A stretch of DNA of 64,000 nt from Spironucleus salmonicida (taxonomy: Eukaryota). The notes below the pieces were generated by a model. It was not told the origin of the DNA, searched no databases, and saw nothing but the letters and a program-made list of their open reading frames with translations. Shown here piece after piece: positions 20,475-25,224 of the stretch; position 1 is the stretch's first letter, and every line of letters begins with the position of its first letter. The stretch is taken from NCBI RefSeq assembly GCF_000497125.1, contig NC_090597.1:879797-943796 (forward strand), given 5' to 3'. The position numbers were made by a program, and so were the translations under genes.

Positions 20475-20630
20475 AGTAGTATGTAACCAGTACTAACCAT
20501 GTAAAATGAAAAAATTCACTTTTCAAAATATGCAATCCTTTTCATGATCGCGTTGCTACCTTAAAAGGCTTGAATTTTTAAAAAATATATTTCTCAAGAT
20601 ATATACTTTTAGTACGTATTACATACTACT
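20475..20630 (-). mobile_element. ~157-bp element with inverted-repeat ends, copy 3 (inverted relative to copies 1 and 2)
   Basis: Arms 20473-20496 and 20609-20632 pair at 21 of 24 positions, with ATAGTAGTATGTAA perfect. The minus-strand core is GGTAGCAACGCGATCATGAAAAGGATTGCATATTTTGAAA. Confidence 0.75.
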
Positions 20631-23600
20631 ATTAGTCTATATTTCTACTCTCCTTTCTGTTTTATATATGCTATGCCACTATCATACTTATAATCAAACT
20701 TACAATCATTTGCTAATTGCTTTAGTACAGCTTCATCCTTATAACCATCTTGATCTGAGTGCAATGTCTTGTTGAACATCTATGAATTAATGTAATTATT
20801 TCCATCATATTTCTTATCATTAAAACTTGTTATTTAGTACGTATGTATCTCGCATATCTCCCTGAACGTATAACCTTCGTATAAAGCATTTATCAATTCA
20901 ATCTCATGCCAAAACCCATAAAGATATCTTTATTCGAGGTTGTGCTTACATTTATCATGATTGTTAACATTTAAACATTGCTATTATGTGCATGTTCTAC
21001 ATAAGGGAAATAGCAACTTGTTACAAATATGACATCCTAACACTGGGAACTTTAAATCCCTTGGTGGTAACATCTAACATTTGATTTATATTACTCTTTC
21101 CTTCTTATCGTATCCAGCTAAGTAGTATTGAAGTCTTTACTCTGCTGTAATCTTCCTTGGTATGCTCCTAACGTATTCAATTAAGTTATCAATATAGGCT
21201 TAATCAAATTTAAACTTATGCTTTGCAATATCTTTTGAATCAATACTTTTGGTATACGTTGAGCATCCTGCTTGTGTTCCAACAATCAAATCTCTTAAAG
21301 GTAAGTTTCCAAATACCATGACTGAAGGGTAAACCGATGTGAAGCCAATTCCGTACAGCTTTTTGTTTGGTCTATCGATTTCTCTACAATGAGTGTAGCA
21401 TTCAGTTCTTCCTCCTTGTAATATCGATCTATTGCTTATGTTGTATTACGGAGGTATCTCTATCTTGATATCGCTGTGCTATTTAAATTTAATAAACTCA
21501 ACGTCTGCTACATGAAAGATGTCTTCAAATACTCCTTCATTCATTCTATCTTTTAAGCGTAATCCCTTCGTTTTATGCTGCCTCTTCCTTTCTTGCATTA
21601 CTTTATAATACTTATATGTTTGCTTTAATTCCTTTAACCCATGATAGAACACTCCATCCAATTCTAATCCATACTTCTTAGTTGCGCCATCCGTGTCACC
21701 ATGGAATACTATATCAATATTGTATCTTGTATCTAAGAATCGTTGATTGTAGAGTACATTTGTTATCTTGGTAAACTTGGTTCCTAAAAGTGTATTTATC
21801 ATTCCACTATCATTCAAAGTTAGATGCGCTAAGCGATACTCGCATTTCGATTTGTTATGTTTTAGATCGTGATAACCTATTTATATCTTTGTATTGCAGT
21901 GGTGTGTGAATAGGTTCATTGGCATTGCTGATGCTGTTAAATAGTTGAGCCTGTTGACACCCTATTCCTTTAGTGATACTTCTACCCATTTCACAAGAGC
22001 TTTGCTTAAAATGAGCTATCTTGAATACAATAATTAATATACTAATCAATGAAGTCTAAGTGATCATAGTAGCTAGCATATTAATTGAACTCATCCAAGC
22101 TTAGCTTATCAAAGTGTTTCTGTTATAGAATGCCTTCTTTTACTAATTCACTTATTGATTTAAGACTCCCTCCGTTTTAAATATACAAATCAAATATATC
22201 TTTTGTTAAGAACGTGTATGACTATAGTTGTTTTCCAACTTCAAGTCCAAGGGCCAATTCCTTATTTAGTTTTGCTAATGGTGAAGTTATGAGTCTAAAT
22301 GAATCCTTAAACGACATTCCATTTATTTTCAAATTCAATAGCTAGTTGTTTGAAATCAATGTTTCGAATTCGAATTGCTCTTTCACTTTCATTATAGCTG
22401 CTAATAATAAGTATTTGTCATATGCTGCTGCATTGTGTGCATAGAAGTCTTTTATCTTATATTTCTTAGTTATTGGTTCCATGTGCCTTATAAATTTGAT
22501 TAGCAAATCGTCTGTTGAAGTGATGTAGTTGCCTGGTTCTTTTAATCTAAGTGCGTTATCATAAAAGTGATCCATCTCTTCATATGTGTTTGTTTCCTTA
22601 TCGTGTATGTTTATAATCCATATTACTAAAAATGGGATGTGTTTCATTGAATACTTTGAATAGTTATCATCATTTTCATTGAGATTCTCGAATAGGCTTT
22701 CTATATCCCAAGTTAGAAATGATTTCTATTCATCATAAAGGTTTCCTTATTTGAAGTACTATCCTTCATATTCAATTTACGTTTTACATTTGCGTGATGA
22801 GTTGTGTGTCGTATTACAATGACTGCATGGTGAAAACTTCTCGCATTTCTTTTAATGTCGTTCTAAGCATTTGCTATCAGGTGTGTTATGGAGCTATGTT
22901 TTACAGTTTTAACATTAATAACTTTTGTTGTCTTTGTATCTTACATGACTGTAGTTGCAAAACGTACAATAATACTTAGTAGCCACTTCTTCTGCTTGTG
23001 TACATTCATAACATTGGTTCTTCTTATGGAATAGGTTTTGGTGTTGATAGCAATAAATATATTCCTTGTGCATTGGGTTCATTGTATTTATTCATTGTTT
23101 AAAATCCATTATGACATTGTAATGTCCATTGCATAAAACTAATAAAAGATCCATTTCTGAATTTGGATACAAGTCATTTACTTTATTAACTTCTGCTACT
23201 CTTATCTTTATATTCAAATACCTTTCTGCTCTTATTAGTATCTCTGTATCTGCTAACTCCTCTGCATCTTTGTTGATTTCATTTATAAGCATATGCGTAA
23301 AGTATTATAAGTATTAGTTTATAGCTTTAGCTTTGTCTAAGGGCTTATCTAAATACGTTTGTAAAGCCTTACCTGCATCAAATGCTATTGTGGTCATTGC
23401 ATATGGTTTCGCTCCTAACTAAAAGATATGTTTCTTATCAACTGTTTTTGATTTCTTGATGAATTCTGCAATGATGGCCGCGTATAGACAGTTGTGGTCA
23501 TTATTTTTGACAAAGAATATAGACCCTTTAAATTTTTACTCTAGTGTTGCGTTTTCTAAATATCCATGACCTACATTTCTACATATCAATCCTATTTAGT

Positions 23601-25224
23601 AACCTTCGCCATATTAAGGATCTACTTCTGATACATAAAACTCATCCTTATCTTTAAATATTTTTAATACTATTTATTCTGGAGAAATGACCTATACGTT
23701 TATGACACCAATATTTTAAAAAAGCATTACATCTATATTTTTAACATCTTTATTAAAGTACTTCTCTCCATTGTCCATCACTTCTTCAAATATTGATTCT
23801 AATAGACTTGACATCTAATTTTAAATTATGAATCCTATAGGAATGATGTTACCGTTTTATTTAATATATCTAATATATGCAAATGCATATGTGACTTAAT
23901 AATTAGACTTGCCGTAATATAGACCAAGGTAAGGTGCATCCGTTATGATTTCAAAGGGAATCTTACTGTTAAAGTTATTTTGAAAGTCTTCAAAGGAGTT
24001 AATGTATTTTAAATCCATCTGATCCAATTTGAAATCCTTCCTTATGGTCTCAAGTATGGTATCGTTTTCGTTAGTATATTTATCATAATTAATTTTGAAT
24101 TCTTCTATTTCTGCTATACCTTGTAACTTTGATATCTTATCTATTTCATTATTAAGCTTATTTAACATTCTAGGTTCTAATCCTTTTTGAATTCTTGTTT
24201 TACGTTATGATTTCATTTATTCATATTTAATATTTTAAGCTCTTAGTTAACTAACCTTTTCGGTGTACCATCTTTACTTAATGAATTGGTTGTCGAATCT
24301 ATATGTTTCGTTTTTAATCTTTTGTATATTGGTTTTCACTTTATTGTCTAATATATTTATACAATCGTAAGGTATTTCAAATTAATTGTAATCTATCTTT
24401 TTGAAATTGCTTCTATATATTTGTTGTATTTATTTCTTTACTTACTTAGTTTTATCTTCTGATAAGTTATCCATATATATTTTGTTTAGTTTTGATTATA
24501 GCGTTTAAAACCGTTTAAGAATCTTTTTATATTTATCATTTTATGGATACACAATAGTGCCAAGTCTATTTTATGCCGATTCTATTGTTGAGAATCAAGT
24601 TATAGTTGATGCTCATTTGTTATAAGTAAAAAATGGTATCTTTTCTTTGGAAATAATAATTTTGATATATTTGTATCTTTCGATTTTCTTTATTTATTTT
24701 ATAATGTTCTCTATGCTTTGTGTGGTCGTTCCTTTATATTCTCTTCTTTGTTCTGGTCTTCCTAAATGCTTGGAATGTATTTCTTGTCTTTCTATAATTT
24801 CTTTTGTATTGTTGATTTTCTGACTTAACTTTTGAAATTTTGAAAATGGGTTATACTACTTTCCGGGGTTTAGACTGGGTGCTTACTACTTTATTATTTT
24901 TAGATTGCGTTATTTATTTCGTTTTATATAATATTCATATGTTTGAATGATCTTTCGAGTTCATTGTATTTATCCAAATTAATATTATTGGCATGTTATT
25001 GTGTTTTAATCGATTTGATTTATTTGATTATTATTTTAATATTTTAACTTGATCATTTGATAAATTATCTTTTGCTATTCTATTTATTTTTAATTAAGAA
25101 TTTCAAGTTGGTAAAGTTATAATTTATATTGATTTGATTTCATATTTGATAATTATGGGATGTAAAGATTTCTCTTTACTGCATTTATATTCTCTGTTAA
25201 GATCCTGTTGTAATTGAATTCCAT
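20594..25224 (-). pseudogene. Polinton/Maverick-type protein-primed family B DNA polymerase (pPolB) polyprotein, inactivated and C-terminally truncated
   Basis: With TAR=Gln one frame runs from ATG 25224 to ~22015 (in-frame TGAs at 24961, 24613, 24595, 23092), shifts once, and runs to TGA 20594-20596. Motifs: vOTU NNDHNCLYAAI and LCNGHYNVI; CxxC/His cluster; Exo I FLTWDIES; Exo II YAHNAAAYD; FKDS; Exo III YCIQD; VSR-like ELDGVFYHG; GGRTE; motif A variant YGIGFTSVYP; PPRDLKFPVL...KLLFPLCRTC...CKH...GFWHEIELINALYEGY. Motifs B and C are absent. Confidence 0.9.

Follow-up and report, generated by a model that had tools for sequence, protein, structure and literature searches.

What lies in the 7.4-kb gap between two CRMP-like genes of the diplomonad Spironucleus salmonicida, and could it still be at work? 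The gap belongs to a stretch of 64,000 nucleotides (NCBI RefSeq assembly GCF_000497125.1, contig NC_090597.1, positions 879,797 to 943,796 of the forward strand), which is referred to here as the window and is numbered from its first letter. An initial annotation, made from the letters alone, had read the minus strand of this gap as the polymerase gene of a Polinton/Maverick-like endogenous virus, written in the code in which TAA and TAG specify glutamine (NCBI table 6, or code 6). The locus is very probably a non-functional fossil, the remains of the gene by which a Maverick/Polinton-type (adintovirus-like) element, once present in the Spironucleus lineage, was replicated. The gene would have encoded a protein-primed DNA polymerase of family B (PolB), and relatives of full length are found in another diplomonad, Hexamita inflata.

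Translated with table 6, the minus strand from 24594 to 20594 gives three stop-to-stop frames (500, 366 and 483 amino acids) that together hold one broken gene. In the following list of its parts, P0001-P0004 are intact H. inflata proteins of 1512-1518 amino acids (~1515), and P0031-P0035 are fragments encoded by S. salmonicida.

23092-24594, minus strand: frame 1 (piece 1), 500 aa from stop to stop in table 6
21991-23091, minus strand: frame 2 (piece 2), 366 aa, in the same frame as piece 1 and parted from it by the TGA at 23092-23094
20594-22045, minus strand: frame 3 (piece 3), 483 aa, shifted by one base relative to piece 2
23095-24342, minus strand: N-terminal part, an unassigned region followed by an OTU-like cysteine-protease domain (blastp, piece 1 residues 85-500 against P0003 residues 7-432, E 7e-15)
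23092-23094, minus strand: in-frame TGA within the linker that joins the OTU-like domain to the Cys-rich region, where the Hexamita relatives are uninterrupted
22018-23091, minus strand: Cys-rich, zinc-finger-like stretch and 3'-5' exonuclease domain, with Exo I WDIES, Exo II HNAAAYD and Exo III YCIQD
21998-22017, minus strand: frameshift by one base directly after Exo III, across which the paralogue P0035 is uninterrupted
20636-21997, minus strand: first half of the polymerase domain (phmmer against P0001, E 5.9e-72; blastp identity 38-39%)
20594-20635, minus strand: 3' truncation point; homology to P0032 ends at ~20636, ~20 residues short of motif B
24595-25224, minus strand: 5' stretch outside the gene, of low complexity, rich in Gln, Lys and Asn, with three TGA and scattered matches, none better than E 0.009

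These frames are far from chance, because none of their 1265 codons is an internal TGA, as against 72 of 2524 codons in the other two frames of the same DNA; simple arithmetic from these counts puts the probability of TGA-free frames at ~1e-16. Every motif that had been listed from the letters is found in the table-6 translation: the three exonuclease motifs and, within 20636-21997, GGRTE, a motif A that reads GIGFTSVYP, and the block PPRDLKFPVL..KLLFPLCRTC..GFWHEIELINALYEGY (in outline PPRDLKFPVL..KLLFPLCRTC..CKH..GFW..ELINALYEGY), together with a Vsr-like insert, LELDGVFYHGL. The extent first proposed was too generous. Instead of one frame of ~1,540 codons there is a pseudogene whose homology to intact relatives spans only ~24342 to ~20636, the nearest upstream Met lies at 24474, and the 5' part at 24595-25224, once counted as gene, has its three TGA, no significant match and no Pfam family. 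No second copy of the relic segment was found within the 64-kb window, where it is unique.

The identity of the gene comes from its relatives. When piece 3 was compared with 5.8 billion proteins, the best long matches were the four H. inflata proteins (E 5.9e-72 to 9.3e-68, 38-39% identity), followed by PF03175 proteins from metagenomes and animals, with PF03175 in 30 of 30 matches; a Pfam rescan placed the same family in all five proteins examined (P0001 at 4.7e-16, P0003, P0005, P0006 and P0020). A separate, word-indexed protein search with residues 540-1518 of P0001 returned seven matches. Piece 2 (residues 12-358) aligns with P0004 (residues 444-797) at E 1.6e-70 and 35% identity by blastp, and the window as a whole is collinear with P0001-P0004, from residue 7 of P0003 (at ~24342) to residue ~1232 (at ~20636). 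The exonuclease motifs of window and P0001 pair as WDIES/YDIET, HNAAAYD/HNGAKFD and YCIQD/YCQQD. Beyond Exo I-III, the intact Hexamita proteins show GGRTEYY, a motif A that reads GLDYTSLYP, a block LPPQNL..PVL..KLLSPLCRTC, motif B KLMMNSIYGKTGQ, motif C YSDTDS and KQYGY. A family profile of 15 rows, Hexamita included, matched phi29 polymerase (1xhx) in the PDB at E 1.3e-8; an internal stretch of it matched the Vsr endonuclease (1vsr/1odg) at E 3.4e-4, and its zinc-finger region gave weak matches to zinc-finger chains at E 0.007 and weaker. By these alignments the intact gene is read, in order, as an OTU-like cysteine protease, a Cys-rich zinc-finger stretch, a 3'-5' exonuclease, a Vsr-like insert, and family-B palm, fingers and thumb.

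In H. inflata the intact ~1515-aa polymerases form four clusters at 90% identity, with 14 member sequences. A further H. inflata protein, P0057 (767 aa), matches P0001 at 92% identity across the core that both have and carries an unrelated tail after the Exo region; because this copy is truncated, decayed and intact copies occur together in Hexamita.

The copy in the window is dead, incapable of polymerase function, and four defects account for this. The reading frame is closed by the TGA at 23092-23094; it is shifted at 21998-22017, close to the position (~22015) at which the initial annotation had suspected a frameshift, and P0035 matches both sides of this break, first in frame -2 and then in frame -1. 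Motif A, which had been noted only as xFTSVYP, is present, but its catalytic Asp is lost: the window has GIGFTSVYP where relatives have GLDYTSLYP, and this Asp column (D1030) is invariant in the 15-row family alignment. Finally, the last ~280 residues are gone. Motifs B, C and KxY, which belong to this part, were not found anywhere in the 64 kb by tblastn under code 6, with P0001 and P0003 at E <= 10 and P0032 at E <= 1e-3; residues 1-391 of the 668 in P0032 match the window, residues 392-668 do not, and after ~20636 there follow 14 unrelated codons and a TGA at 20594-20596. With a premature stop, a frameshift, the Asp-to-Gly change and nothing from motif B onward, the copy cannot replicate an element genome. 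The breaks do not appear to be errors of this assembly alone, because contigs from DNA runs span the frameshift region (21892-22525) with 0 gaps, and one contig (20382-20709, in runs X1 and X4) bridges the truncation point with 0 differences. These runs may derive from the assembly's own sample and so are not fully independent, and among the contigs listed none spans the whole relic and both flanks.

The genetic code of the gene can still be read from its remains. In frame, the relic has 50 TAA/TAG and 27 CAA/CAG in its 1265 codons; seven host frames (six of them CRMP-like) have 106 and 91, respectively. Where the relic can be aligned with P0001, TAA/TAG stands opposite Gln at 13 of 45 positions (29%, where the background is 8.3%; binomial p 5e-5), and CAA/CAG does so at 6 of 26, which is no different (Fisher p 0.78). 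TAA and TAG thus served as glutamine codons while the gene was alive, and TGA was the only stop. This part of the earlier argument holds; usage resembles that of the host and, with the nearest kin in the code-6 diplomonad H. inflata, fits a lineage long adapted to hosts with this code. Among ciliates, Tetrahymena thermophila also reads TAA and TAG as glutamine.

The relic has company in its own genome. Five S. salmonicida fragments of 296-668 aa, 49-88% identical to the window, were found in two annotations, and all five database entries are fragments:

P0031: 533 aa, 87% identical to the window
P0032: 668 aa, 88% identical, named 'DNA-directed DNA polymerase' in UniRef
P0033: 296 aa, 87% identical to the window
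P0034: 459 aa, 55% identical to the window
P0035: 292 aa, 49% identical to the window

Of the C-terminal motifs, P0032 still has B and C but lacks KxY. In motif A, the window and P0031-P0033 have Gly, and P0034 and P0035 have Asp, which suggests at least two Spironucleus subfamilies. Because Asp has given way to Gly in the window and in three paralogues alike, the window's subfamily would have multiplied after the Asp was lost, plausibly by segmental duplication in CRMP gene arrays. The depth of DNA-run contigs over 20840-23845 is about twice that of the flanks (55-79 against 20-38 in X1; ~870-1150 against ~300-430 in X4), as would be expected if near-identical paralogous copies add contigs. 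As a separate observation, P0031 and P0034, which belong to different subfamilies, end in nearly the same tail of ~50 residues (..KYDQEYLCIR.RVVINIKNLIKCILGRNDN.SSKNYA.YINKICK), unlike the polymerase frame of P0032; this suggests that both contain the same insertion or are both read out of frame there, and the odd pairing of the two in the tree described below is probably due to it.

How the diplomonad proteins are placed in the wider family was addressed by several searches and one tree. A profile search of 1.84 billion representatives returned 10,820 relatives at E <= 1e-3, 1,666 of them at E <= 1e-30; its ranking was biased by the presence of P0005 in the query profile, and matches were re-ranked by blastp (P0056, second in that ranking, is an animal-like, standard-code protein that is 28% identical to the window). 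By blastp the Spironucleus and Hexamita proteins are mutual nearest relatives at 35-39% identity, and among the 208 proteins compared, which include the best 150 of the 10,820, no other exceeds ~28% identity over at least 250 residues in the alignments listed; short conserved blocks do exceed that figure. The named neighbours outside diplomonads come from spider mites, thrips and a sea cucumber, and in the ESM Atlas they are arthropod and nematode PF03175 clusters, so that the nearest outside relatives appear to be animal polymerases of the Maverick/adintovirus type. Neither of two scans for further kin found a relative: one of IMG/VR with P0001 as single protein, the other of metagenomes with the diplomonad alignment, which gave 596 pattern matches and whose Gln patterns probably assume CAR, such that code-6 relatives may escape it.

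The tree has 42 rows, namely the window (read through with X), three Spironucleus and four Hexamita proteins, and 34 others, made up of a random draw of 22 out of 93 candidates and of proteins chosen as named or nearest ones. It was built with IQ-TREE in a quick run (LG+G4, SH-aLRT only) on a fast alignment of cut sequences, with two half-filled rows, and it is unrooted, without adenovirus, Mavirus, linear-plasmid, Trichomonas or Giardia rows. All eight diplomonad rows fall on one side of a branch with SH-aLRT 100, and within them Spironucleus (four rows, 100) and Hexamita (four rows, 99) are separate groups. That the nearest kin of the relic sit in another code-6 host fits long residence in this host group over a recent arrival.

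The OTU-like domain at the N terminus (~23095-23577) has a Cys box, NNDHNCLYAAI, and a His box, NGHYNVI; the Cys of the former is the same in all 16 family rows, and the His is conserved in at least 90%. An AlphaFold2 model of the window sequence 23095-23637 (pLDDT 67.9, pTM 0.70) was compared with the PDB by Foldseek, and the top matches listed are deubiquitinases of OTU fold, the best being Otubain-2 (1tff, E 7.7e-4, TM 0.44). There is no Pfam OTU match in the window pieces. The support for an OTU-like domain is modest but consistent, and such an N-terminal domain is given as a hallmark of adintovirus PolB in the relevant passage of PMC11071296.

With regard to the element that once carried the gene, a guide is provided by a related IMG/VR contig of 13.4 kb, L001, on which PolB (PF03175, 6.5e-50) is accompanied by two further genes, one for an rve integrase (3.4e-12), the other for an ATPase of the Pox_A32 type (4.2e-11). 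Because L001 carries these two genes, the type of polymerase seen in the relic is one that travels with Polinton hallmarks, and its first assignment as a Polinton-type, protein-primed PolB stands, by homology, at the level of polymerase type. Its PolB matches the window at 20825-21085 (E 1.2e-12), and the polymerase is the only point at which the proteins of L001 and of a second contig, L002, match the window in tblastn. An element with an OTU-PolB gene probably inhabited the Spironucleus lineage, and the gene was written in the host code and retained under it. The intact enzyme would have copied a linear element genome by protein priming, by analogy with the polymerases of phi29, adenovirus and Polintons, and the Spironucleus copies would have multiplied once inactivated, for instance by the duplications within CRMP arrays proposed above.

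A number of observations weigh against this account and set the strength with which its parts can be held. None of the three window pieces, each scanned alone, matches a Pfam family at E <= 0.1; phmmer of the pieces against the PDB found no polymerase, and a profile of diplomonad proteins alone found nothing there at E <= 0.01. Since the pieces alone give no PolB match in Pfam, a result that the initial annotation had named as speaking against its reading, the PolB assignment rests on the homologues, which do carry PF03175. No integrase, ATPase, protease or capsid domain was found in the 23 frames scanned with Pfam, by searches that are weak for decayed code-6 genes, and no terminal inverted repeats surround the relic; the only inverted pair in 17500-28500 (69 nt, 71% complementary) lies inside CRMP genes. 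The word 'virus' is consequently earned by the polymerase type and not by its surroundings; no integrase, capsid gene, ATPase or terminal repeat having been found in the window, it is the polymerase type that is shown, and membership in a Polinton element is putative. For the OTU fold the match is a modest one (TM 0.44, with a model at pLDDT 67.9), and the case for duplication after inactivation comes from a single shared residue and from where the annotated fragments start, rather than from an alignment of the paralogous loci. The tree is a quick one under a simple model, with a long diplomonad stem, an odd composition of the Hexamita proteins and no outgroup. Because of these limits we infer, and would not put more strongly, that the lineage is old, vertically inherited and specific to the code-6 diplomonads (Hexamitinae). 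The fuller proposal, that a distinct adintovirus/Maverick-like lineage has been confined to code-6 Hexamitinae since before Spironucleus and Hexamita split, was fully recoded, is maybe still alive in the free-living H. inflata and has left only dead copies in the fish parasite Spironucleus, is offered as a tentative one that is less likely than not to be true.

The lack of other element genes is also what gives most room to a different origin, in which the protein-primed polymerase never belonged to a strict Polinton/Maverick with an rve integrase, but to a Polinton-like virus (PLV) with another recombinase, to a replicon resembling a linear plasmid, or to no element at all as a lone captured polymerase. 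Paralogous DNA contigs have loose ends at 20689 and 24848, near the limits of the gene, which hints that the unit common to the near-identical copies hardly extends beyond the polymerase gene; in Entamoeba histolytica there are Polinton-type polymerases for which no integrase, protease or ATPase was found (passages of PMC3511435), and PLVs have acquired Polinton-type polymerases repeatedly (as stated in PMC4642659). Such an origin is nonetheless unlikely, in view of an architecture of OTU, zinc finger, Vsr insert and PLCRTC block that is common to animal proteins of the Maverick/adintovirus type and is seen again in L001 beside rve and the A32-type ATPase, and a decayed element of 15-20 kb would easily lose its other genes. 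That the locus still functions in part, either with the 5' frame (~24474-23095) as a stand-alone protease or with the stop and the frameshift bypassed, is more doubtful by far. The first frame runs for 500 codons without a stop and has retained the Cys and His that are conserved in the family, and low-depth contigs cover parts of the relic in runs X5 and X6, which are only guessed to be RNA and may hold carried-over DNA; yet polymerase function is excluded by the loss of Asp and the absence of motifs B and C, every Spironucleus entry is a fragment, depth on the relic is 3-27 where the neighbouring CRMP gene has ~10,000 in the same runs, and no annotated protein stands at the relic locus in the protein searches made. 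An assembly chimera or contaminant DNA, raised at the outset as a possible undoing of the whole reading, deserves hardly any weight: no evidence for it was found, and it is opposed by the host-like use of TAA/TAG as Gln, by paralogues in two S. salmonicida annotations, and by DNA-run contigs that cover 29 of 30 bins (X1) and 28 of 30 (X4) of 17500-27500, one of which crosses the 3' junction without a difference. A dead replication gene of a Maverick/Polinton-type element thus remains the preferred explanation.

The surroundings of the relic agree with what had been said of them, in that CRMP/VSP-like genes lie on both sides, one with a Pfam VSP match:

16444-18255, plus strand: CRMP/VSP-like flanking gene (Pfam VSP PF03302, E 1.8e-5, below the curated cut-off)
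25633-27192, minus strand: CRMP-like flanking frame with a C-terminal transmembrane tail, recognized from its translation, with no Pfam match

Between these genes and the relic, the frames in 18256-20593 and 24475-25632 gave only Pfam noise below threshold. Summed contig depth over the first gene (bins 17500-18167) reaches the ~10,000 mentioned above in X5 and X6; this might be a surface-protein gene with high expression, contig depth being a poor measure. On the other side, direct repeats at 25847-26127/27085-27365 (79%) and 26441-26475/27679-27713 (83%), 1238 nt apart, mark tandem CRMP-like frames, 25633-27192 and 27057-27848, the second of which looks truncated. At a (TA)n run (18753-18813) the DNA contigs break, and the bin 18502-18835 is uncovered in all four runs compared. 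With TGA as the sole stop, both strands of the window have long spurious table-6 frames along their whole length (79 frames of at least 200 aa in total); one, of 785 aa (15474-17831, minus strand), runs antisense over the CRMP gene at 16444-18255 and has no meaningful Pfam match. A 215-aa host open reading frame at 14998-15645 (plus strand) has a sub-threshold match to the Nup98-96 autopeptidase family S59 (E 8.7e-4); as 14998-15642 it has an exact database match, with S. salmonicida SS50377_21767 as a cluster mate, and a paralogue that is at least 90% identical lies possibly on the same chromosome.

How much of this is new depends on the host that is considered. It had been suggested that such elements were not described from diplomonads, which was too strong, as PMC3511435 cites Polinton-Maverick polymerases from Giardia lamblia and a Giardia intestinalis sequence is included in the tree of protein-primed polymerases (pDNAP) of PMC4642659, according to the legend of its Fig. 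6. Literature that ties diplomonads to Polinton polymerases was found only for Giardia, with other co-mentions incidental. No published description of Polinton/Maverick elements in Spironucleus or Hexamita was found, and supplements may list such elements; in the main texts of the genome papers (PMC11787283, PMC9509377, PMC3916229) the words 'polymerase' and 'virus' are absent, as is 'transpos' from both Spironucleus papers, and the Hexamita genome paper counts 2676 DNA transposons, their kinds unnamed where they are counted (PMC11787283). The main text of a preprint (10.1101/2025.04.19.649669) names none of these taxa, which its supplements may list. To judge from these searches, the relic is new for Spironucleus; Polinton polymerases (in Giardia) and integrated code-6 viruses (in Streblomastix) were already known.

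The copy in the window does nothing itself, and its value is that of a fossil and a pointer. It would place Maverick/Polinton-type elements in Hexamitinae diplomonads at a time when the hosts read TAA/TAG as Gln, and it would explain several Spironucleus 'hypothetical proteins' as fragments of one dead mobile-element gene, of a kind that standard-code tracks of open reading frames miss. The intact H. inflata relatives are the more interesting lead, a possible living system in which to study the confinement of a DNA virus by a variant code. If the proposal is true, recoding locks a lineage out of standard-code hosts, a natural genetic-code barrier that shapes the host range of DNA viruses, and no other OTU-PolB ('adintovirus-type') lineage would have been known before from hosts that are not animals.

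Among known systems, the closest is the animal PolB of the Maverick/adintovirus type, which has the same order of OTU-like domain, Cys-rich region, Exo I-III, Vsr-like insert and GGRTE/motif A, the same LPPxxLxxPVL..KLxFPLCRTC..GTW..EL..A..GY block and, as in the intact Hexamita forms, motifs B and C. The diplomonad proteins differ from adintoviruses in their host, in the use of table 6, in an identity of at most ~28% over long alignments and in forming a separate, well-supported clade; moreover, neither an adenovirus-like hexon nor a chromodomain integrase gene was found in the window, and the window copy is dead. The phi29 polymerase (1xhx) is a homologue at the level of the family, with 575 aa and without the OTU, zinc-finger and Vsr parts. 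The family-B2 polymerases of Giardia, Trichomonas and Entamoeba are likewise protein-primed and assigned to Polintons, in hosts with the standard code (PMC3511435, PMC4642659), and those of E. histolytica share with the relic the absence of integrase, protease and ATPase (PMC3511435). Tlr1 of Tetrahymena thermophila is a Polinton-like integrated element of a ciliate, described as having no DNA polymerase gene (PMC4642659). In respect of the code, the nearest parallel is provided by the Polinton-like viruses of Streblomastix strix, a metamonad host in which the integrated genes are also written with TAA/TAG as Gln, and for which Bellas et al. (2023) took the use of the host table as a sign of a long association between virus and host (PMC10120064); the main text of that paper mentions no Spironucleus, Hexamita, Giardia or diplomonads, and its supplements may differ. 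There the evidence is from major capsid proteins in an oxymonad; here it is from the relic of a polymerase in a diplomonad.

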